Assembly: GCA_045643725.1 (NCBI GenBank)
Contig: JAZRFQ010000043.1
Location: 1,677-65,676 of the forward strand
Length of the DNA: 64,000 bases
Reading direction: 5' to 3'
Source of the DNA: Eubacteriales bacterium
GTDB taxonomy: Bacteria; Bacillota; Clostridia; Oscillospirales; CAG-272
The notes below the pieces were generated by a model, which was given only the letters and a program-made list of their open reading frames with translations, ran no database searches and was not told where the DNA came from. The position numbers and the translations under genes were made by a program. Positions 18,425 to 40,912 of this stretch are shown in pieces (position 1 is the first letter of the stretch; each line of letters begins with the position of its first letter).

Positions 18425-18470
18425 AAAACCGACAAGAGTACGTTTTCGTGCGTTTTTCTTGTCGGTTTTT
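18425..18470 (+). terminator. Rho-independent terminator after the ABC-F gene
   Basis: aaaaccgacaag...cttgtcggttttt is a 12-bp stem followed by a T-run. Confidence 0.75.
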
Positions 18471-18518
18471 CACATATTTGCGGTCACTTAATAGGTGATT
18501 TTTTGGAAGGCAACTATA

Positions 18519-18547
18519 CTTACAAATCACACGGGGTAGGATATAAT
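18519..18547 (+). promoter_or_regulatory. Candidate promoter for the phage-like cluster
   Basis: cttaca, a 17-nt spacer, then tataat (18542-18547), about 130 nt upstream of terS. The -35 matches only 4 of 6 positions. Confidence 0.35.
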
Positions 18548-18676
18548 ATTCTTGCCAAGGCAAAAACGGCGGCAAAAGTCACTCATAGAGTTGATTTTGC
18601 CACCCTGCTCTGTCGGTTGCAAACAACAGAGCAAAAACACATCCGTCCGCAGAACAAAAAACGAAAGGAGAGAGAA

Positions 18677-18988
18677 ATGAAGTACACGGGAGATCTGGCG
18701 AGGAGAATGTATCTATACTTCGCCGAATATAGCGAGCCGTCAGGCGTGCCGAGCTTTGGAAAATTCGCGAGAGGCATCGGCGTCACCCTTGAGGAGCTTT
18801 CCTCCTACAGAAAAAAGGAGAAGTTCGACAGGGCATGGCGCGAGTGCATCGAAATCAGGAGAGATTATCTCATAGATATGGCACTGACCAAGCGGTTTGA
18901 CTCCTCGTTTGCTAAATTTCTTCTCTCTCTTGAGACAGAAAGCGATTCTGCGGACGGCGAGCTTGCCGTATCGCTGGAGGTGGTCTAG
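18677..18988 (+). CDS. Phage terminase small subunit (HTH type)
   Basis: Reading from the ATG at 18677 (aaaggagag upstream) gives GVPSFGKFARGIGVTLEELSSYRKKEKFDRAWRECIEIRRDYL..FAKFLLS. This matches the P27-type small terminase pattern and sits immediately upstream of TerL. Confidence 0.7.
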   Translation: MKYTGDLARRMYLYFAEYSEPSGVPSFGKFARGIGVTLEELSSYRKKEKFDRAWRECIEIRRDYLIDMALTKRFDSSFAKFLLSLETESDSADGELAVSLEVV

Positions 18989-20346
18989 TGAGGCTGCCGC
19001 TCTCGGTGACGAAAAAACAAAAGCTGTTTATCGATGCAAAGGAGTCCGAGGTTCTCTTCGGTGGGGCAGCAGGCGGAGGAAAGTCCTACGGTCAGGTCGT
19101 GGACGCTCTTCTGTTTGCGCTGAAGTACCCTCGCTCAAAGCAGCTGATACTCAGACGAACCTTCGCCGAGCTTGATAAATCACTCATCCGCACCGCTCTC
19201 GCGGTATATCCCAGGGAGATATTCACTCTCAACGCCTCCTCCCACGTGGGCAGGTTCAAGAATGGCTCGATCCTCGATTTCGGCTATTGCGCGGCCGAAA
19301 ACGACGTCTATCAGTACCAATCGGCCGAGTACGACGTCGTGCGCTTTGACGAGCTGACTCACTTCACCGAGTCGCAATACCTCTACCTCATATCGCGAGT
19401 GAGGGGAGCGAATTCATACCCAAAGCAGATAAAATCCTCGACCAATCCCGGCGGCGTCGGGCACGTGTGGGTAAAGGAGCGCTTTGTGTCGCCATCGGCC
19501 CACGGACGAGCCTTTCTCGGCCGCGACGGACTTGAGAGGATATTTATCCCCTCGCTTCTTGACGACAACGGATTTCTGTGCGCACAGGACCCCTCCTACC
19601 GCGATCGACTTTTGGCTCTGCCGGAGCGGGAGAAGAAGGCTCTGCTCTACGGCGATTGGGACATCTTTGACGGGCAGTATTTCACCGAATTCGATGCGGC
19701 GCGGCACGTTATCTCTGCATTTGAGGTACCGAGGGAGTGGCGCAGATACCGCACTATTGATTACGGACTCGACCGCCTCGCTTGTCTGTGGATCGCCGTG
19801 AGTCCCGACGGTATCGCCTACGTCTACCGCGAATATTGCGAGTCAAATCTCACGATAAGCGCGGCGGCGCGCGCCATCACCGAGAGGACGCCGCCCGGTG
19901 AGAACGTCTATGCAACTCTCGCGCCGCCCGACCTGTGGTCGCGCGGCCAGGAGACGGGAAAAAGCAAGGCGATCCTCTTTGCCGAGGGCGGAGTTGCACT
20001 CACGAAGACCTCGAACGACCGCGAGTGCGGATGGCTGGCGGTAAAGGAGCTTCTCTCGCCCGGCGGGCGAATGCAGATACGCTTCTTCGAGAATTGCCGC
20101 GAGATCATTAAGTGCCTCCCTGCTCTGACGGTTGACAAAACCCGTCCAACCGATTGTGCAAACGAGCCGCACGCCATAACTCACGCGCCCGACGCTCTGC
20201 GCGGATTCGCGATATTCTATGCAAGACCGAGCGAGACACGATGCGAGCCGAAGCGGATCTGGTCTGCCGATATGTGGGAGGACTATATGCAGGCAAGCGA
20301 AGAAGAAAAAATCTATCTAAGACGAAGATACGGAGAACCAAATTGA
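18988..20346 (+). CDS. Phage terminase large subunit
   Basis: Walker A is GGAAGGGKS and the Walker B-like motif is VVRFDELTHF, with a C-terminal nuclease-like half. The GTG start overlaps the terS stop (TAGTG). Length is 452 aa. Confidence 0.9.
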   Translation: MRLPLSVTKKQKLFIDAKESEVLFGGAAGGGKSYGQVVDALLFALKYPRSKQLILRRTFAELDKSLIRTALAVYPREIFTLNASSHVGRFKNGSILDFGYCAAENDVYQYQSAEYDVVRFDELTHFTESQYLYLISRVRGANSYPKQIKSSTNPGGVGHVWVKERFVSPSAHGRAFLGRDGLERIFIPSLLDDNGFLCAQDPSYRDRLLALPEREKKALLYGDWDIFDGQYFTEFDAARHVISAFEVPREWRRYRTIDYGLDRLACLWIAVSPDGIAYVYREYCESNLTISAAARAITERTPPGENVYATLAPPDLWSRGQETGKSKAILFAEGGVALTKTSNDRECGWLAVKELLSPGGRMQIRFFENCREIIKCLPALTVDKTRPTDCANEPHAITHAPDALRGFAIFYARPSETRCEPKRIWSADMWEDYMQASEEEKIYLRRRYGEPN

Positions 20347-22076
20347 AAACCGAAACAACATCAAAAGAATTAAGACTTGAATTCTTCAAGGAGCTGTACG
20401 AAAGAGCGAAGAGCGCCTTTTCGGAAACCGCAGAAGAGTTTGAGCAGCATCTTGAGCAGTATCGCGGCTCAAAGGCCATAGACGGCTCATCCGAGGAGGC
20501 TCTCACGGTGAGAAACGTGACCTACGAGATAATCGAGAGCCAGGTGTCCTCGGAGATCCCGATGCCGAAGGTAGATCCTGCGGCATACAGCACAGTCCGC
20601 GACAAAAACGCCCACACGATCGAGATGCTCTGCACCTCGGTGCGCGACAAGCTTCCCTTTGAGGAGATGAACGACATCGACGAGCGTAACACCTACATAT
20701 TCGGCGGCGGTGTGTGGCTCGTGGAGTGGGATAACTCGCAGACCGTAGGCTCGGAGGTCGGCGGCGTGAAGGTACACGTCATCTCGCCGCGTGATTTCAT
20801 TCCCGAGCCCTGCGTGTGTCACGTAGAGGATATGGAATACTGCTTCATCCGCACTCGCGCCACTCGCGGTGACGTGATGAGAAAATACCGCGTTGCAGAC
20901 GAGGACGCCTCGCTTCTCGAGTGCGAATTCTCGGCGTGGGAGAGCGACTGCGCCGATGACACCGTATCGGTGGTAATATGCTTCTATCGCGGCGAGGGCG
21001 GCGAGGTAGGAAGATTCATCTTCTCGGGTGATATCACCCTCTCGGATCTGCCCGACTACTACAGACGTCGCATCGTGAAATGCCGCAAGTGCGGAAGACC
21101 TGCCACCGACTGCAGATGCGAGGACAAGGATCTCTACGACGAGGGTATCGATACCGAGCGCGTGAGGCTCACGGCCGATCAGCTTGGCAGAATATTCGGC
21201 GGCGCGAGAGTGCACGGCGGCGAGATTTCCGTCCCCTACTATCTGCCGCACAGCTTCCCTATAGTTATAAGGAAGAACACCTCGGCGGACGGCAGACTCT
21301 TCGGTCAGTCGGACTGCGAATACATCCGTCCCGAGCAGCAGGCGATAAACAAGATCGAGTCGAGAATACTCCAAAAGCTCCTGCGCGCAGGAATCACGCC
21401 TATAATCCCCGAGGATGCGACCATCTCGCTCAACAACTCGGTGTTCGGTCAGGTCATAAAGATGAAGCCCGGCGAGAGCGCCGACATGTACGGCAAGGTG
21501 GACACCACACCCGACATCTCGCAGGACGTGACCGAGGCGGACAGACTCTACGATCACACCAAGCGAGTTATGGGTATCTCGGATGCCTTCCAGGGCATTG
21601 ACTCGGCAAAGGGCGAGTCGGGATATGCAAAGCAGTTGAGAATCTCGCAGGCGAGCGGTCGTCTTGAATCCAAAAGACGAATGAAAAAGGCGGCGTACGC
21701 CGAGCTTTATCGCCTTATTTTCGAGCATTATCTCGCTTTCGCAGACGAGCCGAGAAGCCTCTACTCAAAGGACGTGCTCGGCAGAGTGCGTATCGAGGCG
21801 TTTAACCGACACGATTTCATCACTCTTGACGAGAGACGCGGTGAGTGCGTCTATGACGATGCATTTCTCTTCTCATCCGACTCGTCGGGCGAGGAATATC
21901 AGCGCGATGCACTCTGGGAGAGAAATCTCGAGAATCTGCGCTCGGGCTCGCTTGGTGATCCCACCCTGCCGAGAACGCTTTTGCGCTACTGGCAGAGTCA
22001 GGAGAGAGCGCACTATCCTTACGCAAGAGAAAACGTAGAATACTTCCGCGCGCTGATAGGCGAGGAAGCAAATTGA
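20343..22076 (+). CDS. Probable portal protein
   Basis: This 577-aa ORF directly follows TerL. Its TTG start overlaps the TerL stop (ATTGA). The call rests on size and position only. Confidence 0.65.
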   Translation: MKTETTSKELRLEFFKELYERAKSAFSETAEEFEQHLEQYRGSKAIDGSSEEALTVRNVTYEIIESQVSSEIPMPKVDPAAYSTVRDKNAHTIEMLCTSVRDKLPFEEMNDIDERNTYIFGGGVWLVEWDNSQTVGSEVGGVKVHVISPRDFIPEPCVCHVEDMEYCFIRTRATRGDVMRKYRVADEDASLLECEFSAWESDCADDTVSVVICFYRGEGGEVGRFIFSGDITLSDLPDYYRRRIVKCRKCGRPATDCRCEDKDLYDEGIDTERVRLTADQLGRIFGGARVHGGEISVPYYLPHSFPIVIRKNTSADGRLFGQSDCEYIRPEQQAINKIESRILQKLLRAGITPIIPEDATISLNNSVFGQVIKMKPGESADMYGKVDTTPDISQDVTEADRLYDHTKRVMGISDAFQGIDSAKGESGYAKQLRISQASGRLESKRRMKKAAYAELYRLIFEHYLAFADEPRSLYSKDVLGRVRIEAFNRHDFITLDERRGECVYDDAFLFSSDSSGEEYQRDALWERNLENLRSGSLGDPTLPRTLLRYWQSQERAHYPYARENVEYFRALIGEEAN

Positions 22077-22087
22077 AAGGAACGAAA

Positions 22088-22219
22088 ATGAACAAGAAGA
22101 AACCCGATTACAGACACACAGGCCTCGAGAAGATCGCCGCCACGAACCAGAAGAAAGCGGGCGGGCCCAAGGCCGTAAAGAAGGCGGCAAAGCGCGATCT
22201 TCGCGTGAAGGGAGGCTGA
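22088..22219 (+). CDS. Possible 43-aa lysine-rich virion-associated peptide
   Basis: My translation gives MNKKKPDYRHTGLEKIAATNQKKAGGPKAVKKAAKRDLRVKGG. It lies between the portal and scaffold-like genes, 11 nt after the portal stop, and falls below the ORF-track size cutoff. Confidence 0.35.
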   Translation: MNKKKPDYRHTGLEKIAATNQKKAGGPKAVKKAAKRDLRVKGG

Positions 22220-22223
22220 TCCC

Positions 22224-22649
22224 ATGGTGGAAAGCACCGAGATCATAACCGAGGCCCTTGACGAGAAGCTCGCCGAGGACGCAATATGCGAGAGCGCGGA
22301 CGCGGAGGGCGAGGTATATGCCGAAGAGCCTGCGTCCGAATCCCTTGACACGCTCACCGAGCTCTACGAAAGCTATCCCGAGCTTACACCCGAGAGTGCC
22401 GCGGCGATCTGCAATCTCGATAGATACCGCGAGCTTCGCACCCTCGGCTTAAGTGTCGAGGAGGCCTACCGTGCCACCGCAAAGAAGAAGCCTGCCCCCG
22501 ACAACCGCGCTCACCTCTCGGTATCGGTAGGCGGCGGAGGCGTGCCCGCATCTCACGGCATCTCCGAGCCCGAGCTTCGCTCCGCGCGAGAGATATTCTC
22601 GGGTATGAGTGATGCCGAAATCAGACGACTCTATAAAAGAGTCACCTAA
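22224..22649 (+). CDS. Acidic scaffold-like protein (hypothetical)
   Basis: At 141 aa it has a very acidic N-terminal half and a helical C-terminus. It sits upstream of the capsid-like gene and has a GGGAGG RBS. Confidence 0.4.
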   Translation: MVESTEIITEALDEKLAEDAICESADAEGEVYAEEPASESLDTLTELYESYPELTPESAAAICNLDRYRELRTLGLSVEEAYRATAKKKPAPDNRAHLSVSVGGGGVPASHGISEPELRSAREIFSGMSDAEIRRLYKRVT

Positions 22650-22673
22650 AAAACAAGAAAAGAAAGGAACAAT

Positions 22674-23087
22674 ATGTTTAAGCTTATTAAAATTCTTAAC
22701 AAAGGTGTAAACGTACCCGAGCCCGAGTTGCTTCCCTGCGAGACCAACGTTGCTCTTGATGCAGGAAGCTGCGTTGTATACGACAACTCCAGCAATATAA
22801 TCTACGCCTGCGATCACACCTTGCCCCCCACACATATCCTCGTAAAGGACGTAAAAAAGGGCGATGCTTTTGCCCTCTGCTACCGAGTTTCCTCCGAGAT
22901 GATCTTCGAGGTACCGCTCATCGGATCTCCTGCTAACGTTCGCACCGGAATGGACGCAGAATTCATCATCAAGGATGGCCACGGTGCATATGCAATAAGC
23001 GACAATGACGGCGGCGCTGCCATCATCTACAGCCTTGAGGGCGCAAAGAAATCCGGCGACAAGGTGCTCGTCACCTTTAACGTATAA
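22674..23087 (+). CDS. Hypothetical head-associated protein (decoration or accessory candidate)
   Basis: This 137-aa ORF lies between the scaffold-like and capsid-like genes and has a gaaagga RBS. I recognised no motif. Confidence 0.35.
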   Translation: MFKLIKILNKGVNVPEPELLPCETNVALDAGSCVVYDNSSNIIYACDHTLPPTHILVKDVKKGDAFALCYRVSSEMIFEVPLIGSPANVRTGMDAEFIIKDGHGAYAISDNDGGAAIIYSLEGAKKSGDKVLVTFNV

Positions 23088-23119
23088 AAGATCAGCGAAC
23101 AAGAGAAAGGAAGAAAAAA

Positions 23120-24178
23120 ATGATAGTTTATTCTAAATCCTCGGGTCTTAATCCTGCCGCGTGTGGCAGACTTGAGACACCCATCAAGATGATAATCGAG
23201 CACGAGAGTGATCTTCTCACCAAGAAGGGCGGCATCTGCTCCTGGCTCTTCAACGTTGAGAAGAGCGGCAAGTTCGGCGAGACTATTGTCGGTGAAAACG
23301 AGTTCAGCGTCTTCAGCGCCGCCCTTGAGGGCGCAGGCGCGGAGAACGATACCGTTATCGAGACCTACCGCAAGTTCATCGAGCACATTCAGTTCATGAA
23401 GGAGTTTACCATCACCGCAGAGATGATGGAGGACGCACAGTTCGGCGTTGCACAGGATGCAAAGCGCCGTGCAGAGAACTTCACCAGAGCCTACTACAAG
23501 ACCATCAACAAGATCTGCGAGTACGCTCTTATGAACGGCACTCAGGCGAGCGGTACTTTCGCGAGAGCGGCTCTCGATCTCACCGCTCCCGACGGCAAGC
23601 CTCTCTTCTCCTCCGCTCACACCTACGGCACTCCCGATATGAACGGCACACAGTCCAACTACTTCTGGGGTGACATCTTCAAGAGCGGCACACAGGGCGC
23701 ACGCGCCGCATCTGCGGCGGCCTTTGAGGAGGCGCTCAGCGAGCTCTCCATCAAGCTCAGAAATATGAAGGACGAGAACGGCGAGCCTCTCGGCTACACC
23801 GCCGACACCATCATCCTCCCCGGCAACAGAATCGTATCCGAGTCCATCGCAAAGAAGGTCTGCGGCTCCGAGTTCACCCTCGGCTCGGCAAACAACGATA
23901 TCAACCTCTGCTACGGCAACTGGAATATCGTAATCATGCCCAACTGGCAGACCGAGGACGACAGAGTTATGATCATGTCCTCCGAGGCAAACAAGAATCT
24001 TGCAGGTAATATGTTCTTTAACCGTGTTCCTCTCACCGTAACCAACTGGGTGGATCACCACACCGGCAACTACATCTGGAACGGCAGATGCCGCTTTGGC
24101 GTAGGCTTCGGCACATACAAGCACATTCTTCTCGCCGTTGACTCGGAGAGTGCCGTCGGCGGTGCGACTGCACTCTGA
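23120..24178 (+). CDS. Probable major capsid protein
   Basis: The call for this 352-aa ORF rests on its position after the scaffold-like ORF and a strong RBS (gaaaggaag). No signal or TM segment is present. The fold was not verifiable. Confidence 0.6.
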   Translation: MIVYSKSSGLNPAACGRLETPIKMIIEHESDLLTKKGGICSWLFNVEKSGKFGETIVGENEFSVFSAALEGAGAENDTVIETYRKFIEHIQFMKEFTITAEMMEDAQFGVAQDAKRRAENFTRAYYKTINKICEYALMNGTQASGTFARAALDLTAPDGKPLFSSAHTYGTPDMNGTQSNYFWGDIFKSGTQGARAASAAAFEEALSELSIKLRNMKDENGEPLGYTADTIILPGNRIVSESIAKKVCGSEFTLGSANNDINLCYGNWNIVIMPNWQTEDDRVMIMSSEANKNLAGNMFFNRVPLTVTNWVDHHTGNYIWNGRCRFGVGFGTYKHILLAVDSESAVGGATAL

Positions 24179-24220
24179 TACTCCAACACATAAATTCGGG
24201 AAGAAAGGAGATACAGAGCT

Positions 24221-25048
24221 ATGACTCTCTTCGAACTTAAAAAGGAGGTGGAGGCCCTCGGCTTTGAGCCCGGGGCCGACACCGACGCCATATTCATAAG
24301 CGCGGCAAACCGCGCGCTCGCTATGATCTCGGCAGAGCTTCCCACCCTGAAAACCCTGCGCGCACCTGCTTGCCAATACGCACCCTCCTACTACCTTGCA
24401 CAGCTGCATCACGGAGCAGGAGAGAAAATAGAGCTAACCTTATCGGGCAAGGCCTATTCCTGCTATATATCAGGCAAAGGCAAGATCACCGAGATCACAG
24501 GCGGCACAAAGATCACATACAGCTTTGATACTCCACTCACCGAGCGACGCGCCATGTTAAGCGGCGTTGGCAGACTGGTGCTTGAGGGCGACGGAAACTT
24601 TGATCTGATTGATCTGTCTGTGTACGACAAGCTTGTCGGCGACGACGTAAACGGAATCCCCGTAGGACACGACAACAGAATCATCCCCGGCGAGCTTGTA
24701 GACGATTTTGCTGCATTTGCCGACGTTCCGCGCGACAATTACGGAAGGATTATAAGCGGCGCGCGCATTGACGGCGGAGAGATAGTGCTTCCCACGGGAT
24801 ATCGCGGAATCGTAACGGTGCGCTACGAGAGCAAGCCGCAGAAAATAACCGCCGACACTACGGTCATCGACCTGAATGCCGATGCGCTATATCTTCTGCC
24901 TGTTCTGACCGCCTATTTCGTCTGGCTTGCCGACGAGCCGAGGCTCGCAGAGAGCTATCTCGACCTCTATCACAAGCTTATGGCAATAGCCAAGAGAAGA
25001 GCCGGCGCCTGCCCTGCTGAATATACCGACGTGACGAGGTGGAGCTGA
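24221..25048 (+). CDS. Hypothetical virion protein (head-tail adaptor candidate)
   Basis: This 275-aa ORF has helical N- and C-terminal segments flanking a beta-rich insert, and lies between the capsid-like gene and the large tail-like gene. Confidence 0.35.
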   Translation: MTLFELKKEVEALGFEPGADTDAIFISAANRALAMISAELPTLKTLRAPACQYAPSYYLAQLHHGAGEKIELTLSGKAYSCYISGKGKITEITGGTKITYSFDTPLTERRAMLSGVGRLVLEGDGNFDLIDLSVYDKLVGDDVNGIPVGHDNRIIPGELVDDFAAFADVPRDNYGRIISGARIDGGEIVLPTGYRGIVTVRYESKPQKITADTTVIDLNADALYLLPVLTAYFVWLADEPRLAESYLDLYHKLMAIAKRRAGACPAEYTDVTRWS

Positions 25049-27717
25049 TGAGAGAAAATCTTATAAAAAGCGACGCCGAGTACAATCGCATACTCGAAAA
25101 TATGCGCGGCGTGGATTTCTCGGGTAAAAAGAAATCGGTGGACAAGCGATACTCTTATCTTGAGAACATGTACCGCGACTACACCGCGGGCGGCAGTGAT
25201 CTTATTGAGAGCGTGCCCGGTTTTCGCCGCATACACTCGGGAACGCGAATAAACGGTCTTCATCTGCAGGGCACGCCGTCGGCCGACCGCTATCTCGTCA
25301 TAAATGACGACGGAGAGCTCTATCGCTGTAACACAAAGGAGCTCGACTCGCTCGTAAAATTAAGCGGAAATGCTACGATCGACTGCGATGCAAAAAGTCA
25401 CGCCTTCAACTTCAAGGGCAAGCTTTATCTCGGCGACGGTTGTGAGCTGATCGCTGTTGATAAGGACGGCGTATGCTCGCAGGTGGAGGACGGTGCGCCT
25501 AGCGCGCCGCACGTTCCGACGGTCTATCTGAACGGCAAGGAGCACGAGCAGAGAAATCTCCTGACCTCCGCCTTCCGCGAGCAATACAATATTGAGATAC
25601 TCGCTAATTTATCGCGCGGCACACCTACTCTCGTCTATCGAGTAACCGACGAGAAGTCCGCGCTCTGCCACGTCTGCGGTATCCTCGATAACCCTGTCAC
25701 CGTATTTATACCCTCGGTGACGAGAATCGGAGAACGAGAGTACTCCGTTGTCGGTATAGACATGGGTGCGTTCATAGGCAAAGACGGTATCAACACTGTG
25801 TGTATCGGCGACAGCGTCGTCACGATCGGCACATCCGCCTTTTTCGGATGCTCACATCTCACCGCAGTCATATGCGGTAGCGGAGTTACCGGCATACACG
25901 CCTATGCGTTTGCCGGAACCGATCTCGAAGAGATCTACGTTCCCGGTGCGATTAAGCGATTCGGACAAAGCTCGATCCCTTCGAATGCCGTCATTAAATA
26001 CGAGCTGGATGAAGACTCCTACAATCTGATTGAAGGAGCGCCCAACGACAACGTTCTCTATGAGCAGGTAGTCGATATCCTTGATCTCGGCATAAAGCTC
26101 CACTCGAAAACCACCAGCATCGACTCGGTAACTCTTAACGGTCGCGCCATCGAATTCAAAACTCTGCGCGACGAGGACAATTATATATCCGAGATACTGA
26201 TACACGCCGCTAAAAAATCCGAGTGGATCGGTGCAACCCTCTCGATCGTCGGATCGGCCGATACGCGCATCGAGCAGCCCGATGCCAAGATCGGAGGCTT
26301 CACCGCGAGAACGGCTAAGGGGAGCAAAGATTTTACGCAGGCGCTCAGGCTCTGCACACACTCCGCCGTTATCGACGGGCGCGTATTTCTCTGGGGTAAC
26401 CCCGAGTATCCCGGCATTCTCTTCTATTCTCACCGCGAGGATGCGGCGATCGACGGCCTGTATTTCGGTGCGCTCGATTACATAGACGAGGGTGCTAACG
26501 CCGAGATACTGTCGGTGCTCGGCTTCTCGGGCGGCGTTCTCGTTTTCTCTCGAGGCGCAAATGACGGCGAGTGCATTCGTCTTTACACTCCCGCGGCGGC
26601 AGAGGGCGACAACGGGCACACGGTGTTTGAGATTTCCGAGGCTCACCGAGGTAATTATCCTCTCGGTGCGGCGATCAATCAGGGCAACGAGGCGCTCTAC
26701 GTCACAAAGGACGGTCTATCGGCTATCGGCGAGCGATCGCTCTATCGCAGCGGCTCTATCTATCCGCGCTCTACGGCGGTTGCCGCTATGCTTGCGGGAG
26801 AGGATCTTACGAAAGCTACTCTCACCCATTGGTGCGGCTACGTAGTCCTGGCGATCGGGGGCAGAATGTACCTCGCAGACACGCGCGCCATGGACGATTT
26901 CGGCGGAGGAAAGGAATACGAATGGTTCTTCCTCTCCGGTGTCGGCTCATACAGAAACGACTCGCGCGTTTACCGTTATGCGAGCGTGGCTCACGACGGA
27001 TATCTCCTCTCGGACACACCCGATGCTATCGTCTCTGATGAGATATGGAGCGAGGGCAACTCGCGTGGCGAGATCGTTTATTTCGTGAATGGAGAGGAGG
27101 GTAAGACCGAGGTCTATCCCACCGAGGAATACTCGGGTGGCGATTTCTACCCTGCCGAGATCTCACTCGGCTTTGAGGATAAGTTAACCTTCTCTACCGG
27201 ATGCGGCGACGTTTTCGTATTCAACAACGATATGCGCGGCATCGCTCCCGAAAGAATAGCCGCTGACCCCGATTTTGACCCAGTTGAGTACGAAAAGGTA
27301 ATGGGAAAACGCATTCATCCCGATTTCTACGCCTTTCATAATCACTCGCCGAGGTATGCTCTGATCTGTGCCTACGACGACTGCGGCGTGCCGCATCTGC
27401 GAAAAAACACAGTCAAGAGCTCGCTGACCGCAAAGCTCGCAATACTCGGCGGCGGTCGCATCTTCTGCGAGGTTGGGCGTGACGGCAACGGATACCGTCC
27501 CATCGCCTCCGTCGACGGAGCGAGCGACTTCTCGGCTCTGTCCTTCACAGCACCTCCCTTTGCGAGCGGCACAAGCGTGACCATCGCTCTGCCCGAGTGC
27601 GAGCGAGGATGGGTCGAAAAGAGCCTGGCACTCTATTCGGAGGACTTTCGCTCTCCCTTTGGCGTGTACTCTATCTGCTACCGCTACAGGATAAGCGGAA
27701 GAATAAAAAATTCTTAA
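25048..27717 (+). CDS. Large virion protein with an inserted BspA-type leucine-rich-repeat segment (tail, nozzle or receptor-binding candidate)
   Basis: The 889-aa reading from the ATG at 25048 overlaps the upstream stop (TGATG). The LRR_5-like segment reads IPSVTRIGEREYSVVGIDMGAFIG..VCIGDSVVTIGTSAFFGCSHLTAVICGSGVTGIHAYAFAGTDLEEIYVPGAIKRFG. The remainder is beta-rich. Confidence 0.55.
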   Translation: MRENLIKSDAEYNRILENMRGVDFSGKKKSVDKRYSYLENMYRDYTAGGSDLIESVPGFRRIHSGTRINGLHLQGTPSADRYLVINDDGELYRCNTKELDSLVKLSGNATIDCDAKSHAFNFKGKLYLGDGCELIAVDKDGVCSQVEDGAPSAPHVPTVYLNGKEHEQRNLLTSAFREQYNIEILANLSRGTPTLVYRVTDEKSALCHVCGILDNPVTVFIPSVTRIGEREYSVVGIDMGAFIGKDGINTVCIGDSVVTIGTSAFFGCSHLTAVICGSGVTGIHAYAFAGTDLEEIYVPGAIKRFGQSSIPSNAVIKYELDEDSYNLIEGAPNDNVLYEQVVDILDLGIKLHSKTTSIDSVTLNGRAIEFKTLRDEDNYISEILIHAAKKSEWIGATLSIVGSADTRIEQPDAKIGGFTARTAKGSKDFTQALRLCTHSAVIDGRVFLWGNPEYPGILFYSHREDAAIDGLYFGALDYIDEGANAEILSVLGFSGGVLVFSRGANDGECIRLYTPAAAEGDNGHTVFEISEAHRGNYPLGAAINQGNEALYVTKDGLSAIGERSLYRSGSIYPRSTAVAAMLAGEDLTKATLTHWCGYVVLAIGGRMYLADTRAMDDFGGGKEYEWFFLSGVGSYRNDSRVYRYASVAHDGYLLSDTPDAIVSDEIWSEGNSRGEIVYFVNGEEGKTEVYPTEEYSGGDFYPAEISLGFEDKLTFSTGCGDVFVFNNDMRGIAPERIAADPDFDPVEYEKVMGKRIHPDFYAFHNHSPRYALICAYDDCGVPHLRKNTVKSSLTAKLAILGGGRIFCEVGRDGNGYRPIASVDGASDFSALSFTAPPFASGTSVTIALPECERGWVEKSLALYSEDFRSPFGVYSICYRYRISGRIKNS

Positions 27718-27721
27718 TTTC

Positions 27722-28108
27722 ATGAAAGGAATCAAAATGAACGCAACAAGGATCACAGATGAGGAGATCACAGCGTTAAGCGTGGCTTCTCTTCCCACCC
27801 GTCCTACCTCCCCTGCCGCCTTTGGCGGTGGGGGCTACACCGCAAAGGAGATGAAGGCGGCCTTCGACCGTCTTCCGCTTCTTCTCGCCAAGCGATACAA
27901 CTCGCTTCTCGAGGATGCAGAGGCTCTCGGCGAGGGCTCGCTCGCGGCGAGCATCCCGACAGGCATCGCCGAGGGACACACGCTCTCCGACCTCTTTGCC
28001 GACGTGGAAAACGGCAATCTCGCAACCCACCTCACAGTAGGTGATGAGAGTCTGTATTCGGTTATCAACCGCCTGCTCGAGGCGGTATTCGGGGAGGGCG
28101 CAAAGTGA
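27722..28108 (+). CDS. Hypothetical virion protein
   Basis: This ORF is 128 aa, or 123 aa if the ATG at 27737 preceded by aaagga is used. Its stop overlaps the next start (GTGA). Confidence 0.4.
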   Translation: MKGIKMNATRITDEEITALSVASLPTRPTSPAAFGGGGYTAKEMKAAFDRLPLLLAKRYNSLLEDAEALGEGSLAASIPTGIAEGHTLSDLFADVENGNLATHLTVGDESLYSVINRLLEAVFGEGAK

Positions 28109-28497
28109 GTAAATTCAGGTTTATATTCAGCCGCGGCGCATGCGAGCTCGCATCCTATGAGGAATCGGGCGGTGCGGCGGAAATGCTCTTCCCGAGAGGT
28201 ACATACGGCGAGGTTGCCGTGGGCGAGGCCGTCTATCCTCTCGTATCGGGCAAGGCTCAAGTGAAGCTCGCAGGATTCGCCGACGGAATCTACCGCCCTA
28301 CGCTCAGATACGGCGACAGAGAGTACGCTCTGCCCGAGGTAAAGAAAGAGGGCAACATAATCAGCTTCGTCGGCTATAGCACAGAGGAGATGTGCGAGAG
28401 ATTCGGCGAGCTCCGCCGTGCTCGCACTGCTCTGCGCGAGCTCGGTGAAAAATACAAGCAGCTCGAGGACTACGTCTTCGGCAAAGGAATATTTTAG
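28105..28497 (+). CDS. Hypothetical virion protein
   Basis: This 130-aa ORF is translationally coupled to the previous ORF. Confidence 0.4.
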   Translation: MSKFRFIFSRGACELASYEESGGAAEMLFPRGTYGEVAVGEAVYPLVSGKAQVKLAGFADGIYRPTLRYGDREYALPEVKKEGNIISFVGYSTEEMCERFGELRRARTALRELGEKYKQLEDYVFGKGIF

Positions 28498-28509
28498 AAA
28501 GGAAAAGCT

Positions 28510-29133
28510 ATGAAAAGAATGAAATTCGTAAAACATCTTATCGCACTTGCGCTCTGCGCCGTGATGCTTCTCGGCTTCGGCACGGCGTCGGCTGCGGAGG
28601 ATAGCGAGATCACGAATGAGGTCACCGGCGAATCCGCGCCCACCGAGACCGAGAATACCAACGTATTCGAGGAGCTTTACGCGGCGGCGAGCGAGTTCTC
28701 GGGCGAGATCGCCTCGGCGCTCGCATTCCTCGGTTCTCTTATCGTTGCCCTCGCCTACAAGCGCGGACTTATGCCTGCGGTAAAGAGCGGAATCGGTGCG
28801 ATCGGCGGCGCGGTAAGTCAGCTCAAGGACTCGACCGAAAGCTACTCAAAGCATCAGGACGAGCTTCTCACCGAGTTTAGCGAGAGGCTCTGTCGCGCCG
28901 AGGAGGTGCTCGAGCGCTTCGGTCAGGCTATCGATGAGATCGCCGAAAAGACCGAGGACGGAAAGTCCGCCGCCGAGGACAGAGCAAGCATGAAGGCTCT
29001 GATGTCGGCGCAGATAGATATGCTCTACGATATCTTTATGACCTCCTCGCTTCCGCAGTATCAGAAGGATGCCGTGAACAAGCGCATCGGTGAAATGAAA
29101 GAGGTGACCAAGAGTGAAAGTCACGTCGAATAA
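28510..29133 (+). CDS. Secreted or membrane coiled-coil protein
   Basis: It has a signal peptide (LALCAVMLLGFGTASAAED), an acidic stretch, one TM segment (IASALAFLGSLIVALAY) and a helical C-terminal half. Confidence 0.5.
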   Translation: MKRMKFVKHLIALALCAVMLLGFGTASAAEDSEITNEVTGESAPTETENTNVFEELYAAASEFSGEIASALAFLGSLIVALAYKRGLMPAVKSGIGAIGGAVSQLKDSTESYSKHQDELLTEFSERLCRAEEVLERFGQAIDEIAEKTEDGKSAAEDRASMKALMSAQIDMLYDIFMTSSLPQYQKDAVNKRIGEMKEVTKSESHVE

Positions 29134-29488
29134 GCAGACGGTTAAAAGCATTTTTCTGCGCGTTACCGGACTCGTTTTGTGCGTTATCCCCGTGACCGTG
29201 TCAATTCTTTGCTATTTTCCTGCCTGGCGTGCCGAGGGCGGCGAGGTTCTGCTCTCGGGCGCGACACTACTGCTTTTATGCATGGCGGCGGTGCCTCTTT
29301 ACAAGCTGATATCCGCAAAGCTACGCTCGCCTGCGGCGTACACGCTGTGGCTTATCGCGTTTATCCTTTTCTTTTTACTCTCCAATATCGCACAGGAGAT
29401 GGTCGTGATATCCTTCACAGGCTTTATCGGAAATCTCCTCGGTGCTATCGCCTTCAAGCTGGCGGGAGGTAAAAATGAAGGAGCTTGA
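29114..29488 (+). CDS. Small polytopic membrane protein (about 4 TM)
   Basis: This 124-aa ORF has four hydrophobic segments. Its GTG start overlaps the upstream gene by 20 nt. Confidence 0.5.
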   Translation: MKVTSNKQTVKSIFLRVTGLVLCVIPVTVSILCYFPAWRAEGGEVLLSGATLLLLCMAAVPLYKLISAKLRSPAAYTLWLIAFILFFLLSNIAQEMVVISFTGFIGNLLGAIAFKLAGGKNEGA

Positions 29489-30320
29489 AAATCTCGGATT
29501 TACTAAAACCGAGGGGCCCGGCGCTCTCATATCGGGAATCGGCACTCTGGTAGCGGTGATCTCTACCGCCATCGCGGTGCTCGTGACCTTCACCGACATA
29601 ACCTTTGGCGGTCTCGGCACGAAGGAGATGACCACCGTCCTTGCGGTGCTTCTCGCCTCTGCCTACGTCATATATTTCTCTCTTGAGGAATCGGGAGAGC
29701 GCAGAGGTGAGGAGACCGAGGAGTTCCGCACGGCATTCGCTCGCCACCGCGAGCTCTGTGCAAGGCTGACACCCGAGATGCTCCCCGCCCTGCGAAGCTA
29801 TCTGACCGAATACACGCTCGAGGAGGCGTCGTCGAGACGGCGCACGCTTCTTATGCGAGCGGGCTTCACCGAGGAGGACTACGATGCATACCGCTCGGGC
29901 AAAAAGCTCGAGTGGTCGGCGCGGCGCGTAATGCGCCGTGCCGAGAAAATAGAGGCGGCACAGATCTCGCCCGGCGACCTGCTCTCACAGGGCAAGCCGA
30001 AAAACCGCGGCGAGCTCTACAACCCCGAGCCTCGCGCGAGGATCAAAATGCTGCTCAATCTCCTGCCGACGACCGTCTGCATGCTTGTGACCGTGTCGGT
30101 AATGCTCAGCCTGAAGGAGAGCCTCGGCCCTGCGGAAATCTTCGAGGGACTGATGAAGCTCTCGGCGCTTCCCATCATCGGAGCGCGCGGCTACGTCTGC
30201 GGATTTAACTACGCGAAGGACGTGCGCGCAAGCTGGCTCGAAACGAAGTCCAGGCTTCTCGTCGGATTTCTCGACAAGTCGGGCAATACGGGCGCGGCGG
30301 GATTGACAAGCGCGGTCTAA
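29475..30320 (+). CDS. Membrane protein with N- and C-terminal TM pairs around a basic helical cytoplasmic domain
   Basis: The ATG at 29475 follows GGGAGG. Length is 281 aa. TM segments occur near ALISGIGTLVAVISTAIAVLV, TVLAVLLASAYVIYF, LLNLLPTTVCMLVTVSVML and LSALPIIGARGYVCGF. Confidence 0.5.
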   Translation: MKELENLGFTKTEGPGALISGIGTLVAVISTAIAVLVTFTDITFGGLGTKEMTTVLAVLLASAYVIYFSLEESGERRGEETEEFRTAFARHRELCARLTPEMLPALRSYLTEYTLEEASSRRRTLLMRAGFTEEDYDAYRSGKKLEWSARRVMRRAEKIEAAQISPGDLLSQGKPKNRGELYNPEPRARIKMLLNLLPTTVCMLVTVSVMLSLKESLGPAEIFEGLMKLSALPIIGARGYVCGFNYAKDVRASWLETKSRLLVGFLDKSGNTGAAGLTSAV

Positions 30321-37774: not shown

Positions 37775-37859
37775 ATATGGTGTTTTCGTATGAATACGCG
37801 AAAATCCGGCGTGAAATTCGCCGAAGACGTTAATTTTTTATCATAAGGAGGTGCTATCT

Positions 37860-37994
37860 GTGAAAAGAACGTATCAGCCTAAGAAGAGACAGAGAAACAA
37901 AGAACACGGTTTCAGAAAAAGAATGGCGACCGCTAACGGTAGAAAAGTTCTTAAGAGAAGACGCGCCAAGGGTAGAGCTAAGCTCACCTACTAA
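37860..37994 (+). CDS. rpmH: 50S ribosomal protein L34
   Basis: My translation from the GTG at 37860 (AAGGAGGTG upstream) gives (M)[43 protein letters not shown]. It falls below the ORF-track size cutoff. Confidence 0.92.
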
Positions 37995-38020
37995 TCGTCA
38001 CGCTGCGTGACTCACAAAAC

Positions 38021-38074
38021 CTCCGATAAAGCGCATCGCATTACCTGCATTGTGCATTATCGGGGTTTTTGTTT
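38021..38074 (+). terminator. Weak hairpin plus T-run between rpmH and rnpA, a possible attenuator
   Basis: ctccgataa...ttatcgggg is followed by tttttgttt. The loop is long, so the structure is uncertain. Confidence 0.3.
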
Positions 38075-38090
38075 AGAAAGGAGCGTTACT

Positions 38091-38468
38091 GTGAAATTTA
38101 ACGCAATAACCGAAAATCATCTTTATTCAAAAGCGTATTCAAAGGGCAAGAGAGCGGTGACGTCGGCTCTCGCGGTTTACGTATTGCCCGACTACGCGGC
38201 AAAGCGTCTGGCTTTGGCGCGTCCCGATAAGAAGATCAAGAACAGAATTGGACTCACCGCCTCCACAAAGCTTGGTGGCGCTGTGGTCAGAAGCCGCGTG
38301 CGACGCATTCTCAGAGCGGGACTTACCTCTCTTGAGCATGACAGACCGCTGAAGCAGGGCTTTCTCATCGTTATAGCAGCAAGGAGCGCGGCAGTCGAGC
38401 TGAAGAGCACCGACATAAGAGCGCATCTTGAATCGGCATTCGAGAAGCTCGGAATGTACGCACAGTAA
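38091..38468 (+). CDS. rnpA: Ribonuclease P protein component
   Basis: Reading from the GTG at 38091 (gaaaggag upstream) gives a basic 125-aa protein with [22 protein letters not shown], in the canonical position after rpmH. Confidence 0.85.
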
Positions 38469-38749
38469 TGAAACACGTAATGATTTGGCTTATCGGCCTT
38501 TATCGAAAATATATTTCTCCCCTAAAACCGCCCTGTTGCAGGTTCACGCCTACCTGCTCCGCCTATGCCATTGAGGCATTTCAGAAACGTGGCTTTTTCG
38601 TGGGATTTGCACTTATGACCTGGCGCCTATTGCGCTGTAATCCATTCTGCAGAGGTGGGTACGATCCCGTACCCGAGAAGAAGGTGCGAGTCAAGCGAGA
38701 TCAAAGGATCGGGAGAGATAACGAGGCGAAAGAAAAAGAAAAGGAATAA
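38468..38749 (+). CDS. yidD: Membrane protein insertion efficiency factor YidD
   Basis: [41 protein letters not shown] is present. Confidence 0.9.
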
Positions 38750-38757
38750 CAACGAAA

Positions 38758-39837: not shown

Positions 39838-39855
39838 ACAAGGAAGAAAACACTA

Positions 39856-40911: not shown

Positions 40912-40912
40912 T

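Follow-up and report, generated by a model that had tools for sequence, protein, structure and literature searches.

Why should an uncultured Clostridia bacterium from the gut carry, in its chromosome, an operon that codes for DNA packaging, head and short tail of a phage and for nothing else? The locus occupies ~12 kb (positions 18425-30320) of the 64-kb stretch of DNA that we analysed (hereafter the window) and comprises 14 plus-strand ORFs (Table 1), which a preliminary description had read as a domesticated, short-tailed particle locus resembling a gene transfer agent (GTA), with the late module of a decaying prophage as its alternative. The ORFs are indeed co-directional and intact, with no frameshift or stop in any of the 14 genes, and the reported stop/start overlaps are real (1 nt between TerS and TerL, 4 nt between TerL and portal, 1 nt between adaptor and nozzle, and 4 nt between g10 and g11, the 123- and 130-aa ORFs). 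The claim that a Shine-Dalgarno (SD) sequence precedes every ORF held for 12 of the 14 originally called starts and failed for g10 and g14 (the 281-aa membrane protein), each of which has a better, SD-preceded internal ATG (27737 and 29475, respectively); the start of the small basic peptide was corrected to 22088 (43 aa). The flanks are as described, an ABC-F gene with a strong terminator hairpin (18425-18470) on one side and a DinG-like helicase followed by mtnN and luxS on the other, and the host-like codon style was borne out by relative synonymous codon usage (RSCU r=0.93, compared to 0.95 in a host-versus-host control) and GC3 (0.676 versus 0.668).

Table 1. Features of the particle operon and its control region, in window coordinates.
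Feature	Position	Strand	Basis
Intrinsic terminator hairpin of upstream ABC-F gene	18425..18470	+	read from sequence
Palindrome GTCACTTAATAGGTGA (candidate operator)	18483..18498	.	just 5' of -35 hexamer
Sigma-70-like promoter CTTACA-17-TATAAT	18519..18547	+	pattern scan, 10/12 matches
5' leader	18548..18676	+	ends in SD AAAGGAGAG
Small terminase TerS, 103 aa	18677..18988	+	phrog_3064 'terminase' 3e-8
Large terminase TerL, 452 aa	18988..20346	+	Terminase_3 1e-11, phrog_979 4e-47
Portal protein, 577 aa	20343..22076	+	phrog_156 9e-28, P22_portal 3e-7
Very basic peptide, 43 aa, pI 10.7	22088..22219	+	positional ORF in relatives
Acidic scaffold-like protein, 141 aa, pI 4.5	22224..22649	+	sits between portal and capsid
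Beta-rich protein, 137 aa	22674..23087	+	directly 5' of capsid gene
Major capsid protein, 352 aa, HK97 fold	23120..24178	+	phrog_371 3.5e-8, Phage_capsid_4 9e-4
Head-to-tail adaptor, 275 aa	24221..25048	+	SU10_adaptor 3.6e-5, under Pfam cut-off
Tail nozzle, 889 aa, T7-gp12/SU10-type	25048..27717	+	AF2 model pLDDT 88, Foldseek
123-aa protein (128 aa from 27722), g10	27737..28108	+	homology to N-terminus of sister-phage tail protein
130-aa ORF, g11	28105..28497	+	closest relatives only
207-aa protein	28510..29133	+	hydropathy analysis
124-aa protein, 3-4 transmembrane segments, g13	29114..29488	+	hydropathy analysis
281-aa membrane protein (292 aa from GTG 29442), last gene, g14	29475..30320	+	hydropathy analysis

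The operon has its own control region upstream of TerS. The ABC-F terminator (stem AAAACCGACAAGA / TCTTGTCGGTTTT with a 3' run of T residues), of which the terminator pattern scan picked up the inner part only, is kept in the related loci L088 and L086 and isolates the operon from read-through. The palindrome GTCACTTAATAGGTGA, a candidate operator for a host regulator, occurs once in the 64 kb (0.08 chance matches expected) and is kept in L088 and L086 but not in L006, and both promoter hexamers are invariant across the four closest relatives. The promoter-like site falls inside a 161-aa TTG ORF first called as TerS; we reject this ORF, the true start being the ATG at 18677 (103 aa) preceded by the SD AAAGGAGAG. 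The first 93 nt of the leader are predicted to fold into three hairpins, in which the loop CGGTTGCAAAC is invariant, and RNAalifold on four sequences predicted 16 pairs, 7 of them with compensatory changes; a covariance model of the leader matched only the window, L088, L086 and L006, and a comparison with Rfam gave no family match.

The ancestry of the operon can be read from TerL and capsid, whose host-locus sequences form one clade with a sister group that includes a temperate phage of ~42 kb (IMGVR_UViG_3300029705_000297, 41.8 kb, one of the ~40-kb phages of gut Clostridia in IMG/VR). This phage, the one member of the sister group on whose full reading (~42 kb) our account of its gene content rests, has the same late order (scaffold, small ORF, capsid, adaptor, nozzle, fibre, membrane proteins), and its TerL, capsid and membrane protein at the g13 position are 67%, 56% and 38% identical to those of the window. 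It additionally encodes a serine recombinase, an XRE repressor, a DnaC-like loader, a reverse transcriptase and a 2597-aa polyvalent protein, and it has a 174-aa TerS, a 263-aa scaffold-like ORF, a 1160-aa fibre and a nozzle free of leucine-rich repeats (LRR); each of these items is missing, shortened or altered in the window cluster.

Profile-HMM searches (Pfam, PHROG) confirmed the identities proposed for TerS, TerL, portal and capsid, and structure prediction with fold searches did so for capsid and nozzle. TerS, called at 104-112 aa in relatives, aligns with the C-terminal part (residues 84-172) of the sister phage's GP3_package TerS, a shortness that is not diagnostic, because ORFs of ~100 aa also lie 5' of TerL in some ~40-kb phage relatives. 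TerL carries the Walker A motif GGAAGGGKS and is 61-89% identical to its relatives (dN/dS 0.04-0.10); the portal (dN/dS 0.04-0.18) also matches SU10_portal, below threshold. An ORF of 42-43 aa stands at the position of the basic peptide in L003, L086 and L088, with a common C-terminal motif DLR[VI]K. We call the 141-aa ORF scaffold-like from its position and acidity, since it matched no family; almost every relative has a homologue by tblastn, and the ORF is 31% identical to the sister phage's ORF at the same position. The 137-aa protein, for which PDB, Pfam and PHROG gave no match, has homologues in ~60 relatives (26-41% identity) and aligns with same-position ORFs of 126-135 aa (31% identity in the sister phage, 22% in L001); a role as head accessory or in head decoration is possible. 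For the capsid, the top PDB matches of the AlphaFold model (pLDDT 63) in Foldseek are all HK97-fold capsids, among them that of RcGTA (6tsu); the protein matched 1755 database clusters, is 72-84% identical across 80 species representatives and has a dN/dS of 0.01-0.14.

Besides a DNA-packaging motor (TerS, TerL, portal) and an HK97-fold head (scaffold-like protein, small accessory protein, capsid), the operon has the genes of a podovirus tail (adaptor, nozzle, fibre stub). The adaptor keeps its position between capsid and nozzle in relatives, and a PDB profile search with it gave no match. The 24 top PDB matches of the nozzle model are all podovirus nozzles (cyanophage A4, SU10, T7 gp12, P22 gp10 and similar; E down to 9e-20), so that the operon has the portal, adaptor and beta-propeller nozzle architecture in common with the T7 gp12, SU10 and P22 gp10 tail machines, but at 7-11% identity only, with an LRR insertion in the nozzle and without a full-length fibre, tailspike or recognisable internal core proteins. 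The insertion is a BspA-type domain (residues ~181-381), found as LRR_5 in 24 of 24 relatives scanned and missing from the sister phage's nozzle (750 aa); the nozzle as a whole evolves fast (32-92% identity among relatives). Residues 10-102 of the 123-aa protein align by BLASTP with residues 7-105 of the sister phage's 1160-aa tail protein (28% identity, E 4e-8), and 24 host loci match the same N-terminal segment of ~100 residues, so the protein looks like the N-terminal, anchoring stub of a tail fibre. The 130-aa ORF has tblastn matches in L006, L084 and L086 only; other relatives carry 2-3 kb of different ORFs at its position (155, 155, 377 and 140 aa).

The three membrane proteins that end the operon were inherited from a phage late module. 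The 207-aa protein, which starts with a signal-peptide-like stretch, has one more hydrophobic segment and closes with an acidic helical tail, is kept in ~58 relatives and gives only weak PHROG hints (for example, Rz-like spanin, 0.005); the 124-aa protein (29-64% identity in host relatives) may be a holin or an ejection protein; and the 281-aa protein (dN/dS 0.09-0.39) is homologous to a 302-aa ORF that ends the sister phage's late module (E 1e-6). Pfam and PHROG searches found neither an endolysin nor a recognised holin in the operon. Likewise, the reported absence of phage replication, integration, tail-tube and lysin genes from the window was upheld by Pfam scans of 44 further ORFs, nearly all of its long ORFs, which encode housekeeping, transport and surface proteins only and gave no integrase, repressor, replication, tape-measure, tube, sheath or lysin family.

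How the operon is transmitted was addressed by comparison across relatives. The capsid gene matches 197 GTDB species representatives, and the 80 that were examined are all uncultured gut Clostridia, one of them mapping to the Oscillospirales family CAG-272. All carriers are metagenome-assembled genomes, in which binning errors are possible (L039 is labelled Coriobacteriaceae). Among the 53 loci available over their full span, 50 have a core that is complete and collinear; the gene directly upstream is ABC-F in 26 of the 53, DinG follows the cluster in 11 of 16, and ABC-F synteny in about half of the loci implies that the cluster moved, or its neighbourhood was rearranged, in some lineages. All genes are under purifying selection (dN/dS 0.01-0.18 for TerL, portal and capsid, 0.05-0.42 for the other cluster genes and 0.04-0.13 for the neighbouring ABC-F). 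Most dS values are saturated (>1), and the two least saturated pairs, which give the reliable rates, show cluster dS of 0.14-0.20 and 0.34-0.48 against ABC-F dS of 0.16 and 0.43, respectively. Cluster divergence tracks ABC-F divergence (Mantel r=0.78, p=2e-4), with a higher mean identity for the capsid (81%) than for ABC-F (69%). By these sequence comparisons, the operon is passed on with the chromosome by vertical descent, and is held under purifying selection, in at least 80 related species.

These data support the domesticated, GTA-like reading of the preliminary description and decide for domestication against a decaying late module. We consider it probable that the locus belongs to the host and is what remains of a temperate short-tailed phage after reduction to the particle-making late operon, most likely serving as a GTA. 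The defining behaviour of GTAs is the packaging of random host DNA in pieces too small to hold the locus, together with transfer to recipients. We infer both that these particles package random host DNA and that the operon merits the label GTA-like; since the sister phages package ~40 kb, the head may be large enough to take in all 12 kb of the locus, in breach of the classical criterion.

The evidence for domestication would fit equally well a particle kept for something other than gene transfer, such as lysis-linked killing or decoy, DNA release for biofilm or nutrient sharing, or delivery by the LRR nozzle. A capsid conserved beyond a housekeeping gene signals strong constraint, and the gain of a BspA-type LRR adhesin domain by the fast-evolving nozzle, along with truncation of the long fibre, shows that the binding end was re-engineered after domestication. 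However, constraint on TerS, TerL and portal is among the strongest in the operon (dN/dS 0.04-0.18), which places DNA packaging within the selected function and agrees better with transfer than with a pure toxin or an empty shell; we therefore regard a non-transfer role as rather unlikely.

Less likely still is a helper-dependent satellite that packages itself into small capsids of its own but needs a helper phage to be induced and replicated and to lyse the cell. Such a satellite, like the operon, would encode packaging, head and tail genes without a lysis enzyme; related temperate phages circulate in the same habitats, and in L086 an XRE-type HTH gene and three phage-like ORFs are inserted just upstream of TerS. 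Yet the window yielded no integrase, excisionase, primase or replication initiator, tblastn with the sister phage's recombinase, XRE repressor, DnaC-like loader, reverse transcriptase and polyvalent protein gave no match within 10 kb either side of the cluster at 86 host loci, and the cluster is without tRNA or att-type context, a tRNA lying nearby in just 2 of 54 loci. Chromosome-like dS and co-divergence with the flank are also unexpected for mobile satellites. Capsid-forming PICIs and PBSX-type prophages are likewise chromosomal and make phage-like particles from a reduced gene set, but the former carry int, a replication module and regulators and move horizontally, none of which was found for the operon, and PBSX, which has sheath and lysis genes, resembles a myovirus (TerL here scores 33.5 bits against a cut-off of 105 for the PBSX terminase model). 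An ordinary defective prophage, either a neutrally decaying late module or part of an active prophage with its other modules elsewhere, would account for a phage late operon with true temperate phages as close relatives, but is very improbable given the conservation data: uninterrupted genes, an intact core in nearly all species, dN/dS far below 1 for every gene, ameliorated codon usage, a monophyletic host-locus clade with host-like dS, no other phage genes among the scanned ORFs of the 64 kb, and no sign of the cluster dS far below flank dS that recent independent insertions would leave.

The closest known system to the domesticated operon is FpGTA of Faecalibacterium prausnitzii, a podovirus-like GTA in gut Oscillospirales with 40-nm particles that hold ~8.5-9 kb of random host DNA; the same study reports GTA-like packaging of 4-10 kb in several uncultured Clostridia, without an identified locus (Borodovich et al., Nat Commun 2026, PMC12946183). 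FpGTA is likewise chromosomal and structural-only (TerS, TerL, portal, scaffold, capsid, adaptor), with podovirus-like components, no replication genes and conservation across a gut Oscillospirales genus, and its existence lowers the novelty of the present locus somewhat. The FpGTA capsid is annotated as N4-gp56 family, and a Prp-like protease gene lies between its portal and capsid genes; the capsid here had no match to the N4-gp56 model at E<=1, matching Phage_capsid_4 and phrog_371 instead, and the operon has no Prp protease. Moreover, the FpGTA genes lie in two operons separated by ~125 kb, with fibre, holin and endolysin in the second, as opposed to one contiguous operon without a lysin. 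Because capsid family and architecture differ, the operon looks like a separate domestication, FpGTA having been compared by description only.

The same logic, a phage-derived head-packaging-tail cluster that is inherited vertically under purifying selection and is without phage replication and integration functions, applies to the RcGTA-type GTAs of Alphaproteobacteria (and to CcGTA, BaGTA, VSH-1, Dd1 and VTA), in which the capsid is also the best-conserved gene. RcGTA resembles a siphovirus in having tape measure, tube and head spikes, genes for none of which are present here, and RcGTA-type elements, whose packaging and transfer have been demonstrated, belong to an unrelated bacterial phylum and phage ancestor.

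If the operon acts as a GTA, its host-controlled promoter, with the operator-like palindrome and structured leader, would turn it on in a few cells, procapsids would assemble on the portal, and the terminase would fill them with chromosomal DNA by a headful mechanism; without element-specific replication or excision, the locus itself could not be enriched in the packaged DNA. Adaptor and nozzle would then close the particle, lysis would release it, possibly helped by the three membrane proteins or by unlinked host genes, and the DNA would be delivered to related cells, where the newly inserted LRR domain of the nozzle may be an adhesin that replaces the lost long fibre. We conclude that the operon very probably encodes a host-owned particle of the gene-transfer-agent kind, not a dying prophage, in a clade of uncultured gut Clostridia that belongs at least in part to the Oscillospirales family CAG-272.

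From its gene content the operon specifies a complete packaging motor, a head of the HK97 type and a podovirus tail, and no means of excision or replication. All 14 of its ORFs are co-directional and read through without frameshift or internal stop, and the gene junctions overlap, both as the preliminary description had claimed; its further claim that every ORF has a Shine-Dalgarno (SD) site held for 12 ORFs with their initially assigned starts, the other two genes having better internal starts. Because the promoter-like site falls within the longer TTG ORF first called for TerS, that ORF was replaced by one starting at a downstream ATG, and the start of the small peptide was corrected as well. 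In profile searches TerS matched phrog_3064 (3e-8), TerL matched Terminase_3 (1e-11) and phrog_979 (4e-47) and carries the expected Walker A motif GGAAGGGKS, the portal-sized ORF proved to be a portal (phrog_156, 9e-28; P22_portal, 3e-7), the capsid matched phrog_371 (3.5e-8) and Phage_capsid_4 (9e-4), and the 275-aa ORF matched SU10_adaptor below threshold.

Positions in the window of the features discussed in the text
Feature	Position	Strand	Remarks
Operon, 14 ORFs (TerS to g14)	18425-30320	+	
Terminator hairpin of the ABC-F gene	18425-18470		strong
Palindrome	18483-18498		GTCACTTAATAGGTGA; just upstream of the -35 hexamer; unique in the window
Promoter-like site	18519-18547		CTTACA-17-TATAAT
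Leader	18548-18640		93 nt
TerS, corrected start	18677	+	ATG; 103 aa; SD AAAGGAGAG
Small peptide, corrected start	22088	+	
Capsid gene	23120-24178	+	
Nozzle LRR insertion	25588-26190	+	residues ~181-381
g10 (fibre-stub ORF)	27722-28108	+	
rpmH, rnpA, yidC, jag, mnmE	37851-42292		~8 kb downstream of the cluster
Surface protein	50334-58583	-	2749 aa; subtilase/PA/Fn3/LRR

Structure predictions answered the two fold questions raised earlier, whether the capsid-sized protein has an HK97 fold and whether the 889-aa protein resembles the T7 gp12 nozzle. The capsid model (pLDDT 63) matched HK97-fold capsids only, among them those of P4/P2, YSD1, phi29 and SU10 and the RcGTA capsid (6tsu). For the 889-aa protein (pLDDT 88, pTM 0.82) the first 24 structural matches were podovirus nozzle proteins, with E-values down to 9e-20, including those of cyanophage A4, Carin-1, LME-1, SU10, T7 (gp12) and P22 (gp10). 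Searches of PDB sequences with the capsid and adaptor profiles, the portal and the profile of the 137-aa ORF g06 returned nothing significant, and scans with Pfam, PHROG and NCBIfam found neither an endolysin nor a recognised holin in the operon, nor a protease match in the three ORFs between portal and capsid. The profile matches of portal and adaptor, the nozzle fold and the lack of detectable long-tail genes together describe a podovirus virion module.

The operon sits between ordinary chromosomal genes. Upstream lies an ABC-F gene whose terminator hairpin insulates the operon from read-through, and downstream a DinG-like helicase gene followed by mtnN and luxS, flanks that were found as previously claimed. 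A scan of 44 further ORFs revealed PcrA, HisRS, mini-RNase III, SepF, LspA, RluD and an amino-acid ABC transporter on one side, and an aminoacyl-tRNA synthetase, a MiaB-like protein, HPRT, the rpmH-rnpA-yidC-jag-mnmE set, an Opp transporter and a 2749-aa subtilase/LRR surface protein on the other. The rpmH-rnpA-yidC-jag-mnmE set adjoins oriC and dnaA in many Firmicutes; dnaA was not found within the window, and cumulative GC skew has its maximum near 58 kb, where gene orientation flips. The claimed absence of phage genes also stood: with Pfam, PHROG and NCBIfam, no integrase, repressor, replication protein, tape measure, tube, sheath or lysin was found among the cluster and the 44 further ORFs. 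The cluster is thus, like a gene transfer agent (GTA), a chromosomal set of structural and packaging genes devoid of phage replication, integration and immunity genes. Its GC content is like that of the host genes (GC3 0.676 versus 0.668), and its codon usage, described as host-like by eye, correlates with that of the host at r=0.93 (RSCU), compared to 0.95 in a host-versus-host control.

Relatives of the capsid are numerous. It matched 1755 database clusters, the best 120 of which are all 77-98% identical to it, ~350 aa long and derived from MAGs of Clostridia, Ruminococcaceae or Oscillospiraceae, on contigs of up to 359 kb; a search of a 50%-cluster library placed 2747 clusters in the capsid superfamily. 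At one genome per species, 197 GTDB species representatives carry a capsid relative by pattern-plus-tblastn matching, and the best 80 of these, which were inspected, have a capsid identity of 72-84% and all come from uncultured gut MAGs of humans, ruminants and other animals, UBA1740 (GTDB Oscillospirales, family CAG-272) being among them. Comparison of all window proteins with the relative loci by tblastn revealed a near-universally conserved gene order, with a complete collinear core in 50 of the 53 loci whose contig spans the whole region. The immediate upstream neighbour is ABC-F in 26 of 53 loci, and the immediate downstream neighbour is DinG in 11 of 16. In three loci (L046, L056 and L069) the TerS-TerL-portal block lies ~9-10 kb downstream of the capsid gene, past the tail and membrane genes; TerL was detected over 93-99% of its length at the moved site and the portal in two of the three. 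These loci retain the gene content, not the phage gene order, which recalls split GTA loci.

Mean pairwise protein identity was 81% for the capsid, 74% for TerL, 69% for ABC-F, 64% for the portal and 40% for the nozzle, and dN/dS from codon alignments (NG86; orthologue boundaries taken from tblastn HSPs, relatives all MAGs) was 0.01-0.18 for TerL, portal and capsid, 0.05-0.42 for the other cluster genes and 0.04-0.13 for ABC-F. In most comparisons dS is saturated; in the two pairs where it is not, cluster dS equals that of the flank (0.14-0.20 versus 0.16 for L037/L039; 0.34-0.48 versus 0.43 for L030/L032). Across 28 genomes, ABC-F identity correlated with the mean identity of TerL, portal and capsid (r=0.78, Mantel permutation p=2e-4). 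Together with the monophyly of the host loci (see below), the collinear core, dN/dS, dS and the Mantel correlation point to vertical inheritance and purifying selection across the host clade, as in GTAs; the synteny and dN/dS comparison proposed in the preliminary description thus came out on its side. By these measures the cluster has diverged along with the chromosome and under constraint, which rules out a neutrally decaying prophage remnant and likewise, since cluster dS matches flank dS, recent independent insertions. The L039 contig (CAVEOF010000004.1) is labelled Coriobacteriaceae, yet its content is almost the same as that of L037, a Eubacteriales MAG; the label is probably a binning or labelling error rather than a sign of cross-phylum transfer.

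The IMG/VR relatives are of two kinds. Those of the first kind are fragments of at most 17 kb with a capsid identity of 73-80% that fall within the host clade and probably represent chromosomal DNA of the host labelled as viral; L089-L098 and L107-L113, for example, are host-clade cluster fragments catalogued as viral genomes, and L089 includes ABC-F. Those of the second kind are many viral contigs with a TerL identity of 49-67%, some of which measure 38-46 kb. One of these, the temperate sister phage IMGVR_UViG_3300029705_000297 (41.8 kb), shares 67% identity with the window in TerL, 56% in the capsid and 38% in the membrane protein g13, has the same late-gene order and additionally encodes a large serine recombinase, an XRE-type HTH protein, a DnaC-like loader, DUF6291, a reverse transcriptase and a 2597-aa polyvalent protein. 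In an NJ tree of TerL (BLOSUM distances), all 66 host-locus sequences group with 12 short IMG/VR fragments in a single clade, to which this phage group is sister, and the capsid tree, built in the same way, is concordant. None of the sister phage's non-structural proteins had a tblastn match in the 86 host loci (±10 kb). Compared to the phage, the domesticated version is without recombinase, repressor, replication genes and polyvalent protein, and its scaffold-like ORF (141 aa) is about half as long as the homologous phage ORF (263 aa), the sister phages having genomes of ~40 kb; the last two membrane proteins, g13 and g14, were inherited from the phage late module. A short TerS is not diagnostic as a GTA hallmark, since ~100-aa ORFs also precede TerL in some ~40-kb viral contigs.

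The nozzle carries an insertion of ~170 aa with BspA-type leucine-rich repeats (LRRs) that is absent from the sister phage nozzle: residues 3-180 and 382-888 align to the phage protein, whereas the stretch between them is almost without counterpart. LRRs were present in 24 of 24 host-clade nozzles scanned, and the nozzle evolves fast (32-92% identity). The repeats are 30-37% identical to those of the surface protein encoded in the same genome, which hints at a host adhesin module grafted into the tail. The fibre-stub ORF g10 corresponds to only the N-terminal ~100 residues of the sister phage's 1160-aa fibre (L103:14282-17764), and at its position other host-clade members have 2-3 kb of different small ORFs (155, 155, 377 and 140 aa); it is thus in the distal tail that the operon varies. 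An LRR insertion in a nozzle that evolves quickly, combined with the truncated fibre, suggests that the nozzle itself became the adhesin. The three membrane proteins gave weak and inconsistent PHROG and Pfam hints (spanin-like, SpoIIIAH, DUF2105) and could be lysis or ejection factors, or the lysis genes could be sited elsewhere, as in the GTA of Faecalibacterium prausnitzii (FpGTA).

Upstream of TerS lie an operator-like palindrome, a promoter-like site that is conserved in the closest relatives and a leader with three hairpins, covarying stems (compensatory changes in 7 of 16 pairs) and an invariant loop, CGGTTGCAAAC; the leader matched no Rfam family. The conservation of this control region contrasts with the synonymous sites of the genes beside it, which approach saturation (dS 0.6-1.4 in the measured pairs). 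The elements are kept only in the four closest sequences (the window, L088, L086 and L006), the only ones that the leader's covariance model matches, so the leader was rejected as a family-wide element and the case for regulation is local and weak: palindrome, promoter and structured leader are candidates through which the host may control the operon. L086 has four extra genes between ABC-F and TerS (L086:3000-5208), encoding an XRE-type HTH protein on the opposite strand, a 71-aa ORF, a 203-aa ORF and a 344-aa zinc-ribbon ORF (phrog_6586). These may form a regulatory module, or the insertion may be unrelated.

Among known systems, the general logic of the cluster recurs in RcGTA-type agents, PBSX and capsid-forming PICIs, whose defining features the cluster lacks. 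Capsid-forming PICIs and satellites have an integrase, a replication initiator or primase and att integration, none of which occurs among the scanned window ORFs; homologues of the sister phage's recombinase are likewise absent from the 86 host loci, and a tRNA gene is adjacent in only 2 of 54. RcGTA-type agents have a siphovirus-like tail with tape measure and tube and their own gene order, whereas neither tail gene was detected in the cluster and its tail is of the nozzle type. Of the known systems FpGTA comes closest. This podovirus-like, structural-only GTA belongs to a genus of gut Oscillospirales, and its 40-nm capsids package 8.5-9 kb of host DNA (PMC12946183). The FpGTA capsid (RCH50849.1) is annotated as N4-gp56 family, whereas that of the window matches Phage_capsid_4/phrog_371 and has no NCBIfam match to the N4-gp56 model at E<=1. 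FpGTA has an annotated Prp-like cysteine protease gene (RCH50850.1) between portal and capsid, where none was found in the window cluster, and consists of two operons, the second with baseplate, fibre and RBP, holin and endolysin genes; the 64-kb window holds one contiguous operon without a lysin, and a second locus may lie outside it. On this comparison with the FpGTA annotations only, membership in the FpGTA family is not supported, and a common origin, if there is one, may be very deep.

In INPHARED, matches to capsid and portal were confined to two unannotated virome scaffolds from human faeces (25-33% identity). These (L001 and L002, MT836833 and MT837280) represent a second capsid family, 25-28% identical to the window capsid and highly conserved internally, which occurs in ~43-kb viral contigs, including real phages, and also in Oscillospiraceae, Allofournierella and Ruthenibacterium genomes and on contigs of up to 370 kb; some of its proteins are named by NCBI from Gemmiger, Allofournierella, Ruthenibacterium and Intestinibacillus. 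Some members could be further domesticated clusters. The family gave no link to Faecalibacterium.

We conclude that the cluster is a variant of an already known type of system and not a new type. The earlier preference for a domesticated, GTA-like locus is borne out as far as sequence analysis can go: the operon is maintained by selection and vertically inherited, and we are highly confident that a podovirus-derived particle operon was domesticated in a clade of uncultured gut Oscillospirales. We consider it somewhat more likely than not that the operon works as a strict-sense GTA. If the operon is transcribed, its terminase would act only on chromosomal DNA in situ, so that particles should carry host DNA, by analogy with GTAs. 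We tentatively propose, at a little less than even confidence, that a temperate podophage was domesticated long ago into a single-operon GTA, throughout a clade of uncultured gut Oscillospirales (CAG-272 and relatives) and independently of FpGTA, and that the particle later lost its long fibre and gained an LRR adhesin domain in the nozzle.

GTA-like packaging of 4-10 kb has been reported for CAG-115, Onthomonas, UBA11524, UBA1829, UBA1206, HGM11616, QANA01, UMGS856 and Ruminococcus callidus, CAG-272 not being mentioned among these taxa, and a GTA locus is named only for Faecalibacterium, though many uncultured Clostridia show such packaging (PMC12946183). The cluster could be one of the missing loci behind this 'orphan' packaging, seen in gut viromes and coming from uncultured Clostridia.

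The interest of the cluster rests on its species breadth, with matches in 197 species representatives of an abundant uncultured clade of the animal and human gut, on a capsid more conserved than a housekeeping gene and on the clear comparison with a sister phage. That temperate phage offers a natural before-and-after comparison of losses, shortenings (scaffold-like protein, fibre) and the LRR gain. The host-gene fragments flagged as viral in IMG/VR are a warning to virome analysts of false phage calls; if our reading is true, capsid and TerL would be marker genes for screening viromes and metagenomes. To our knowledge, GTAs have been described in just a few lineages, FpGTA being the sole one from the gut microbiome. 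A second, independent podovirus-type locus would mean that gut Firmicutes have repeatedly domesticated phages into particles that package DNA.
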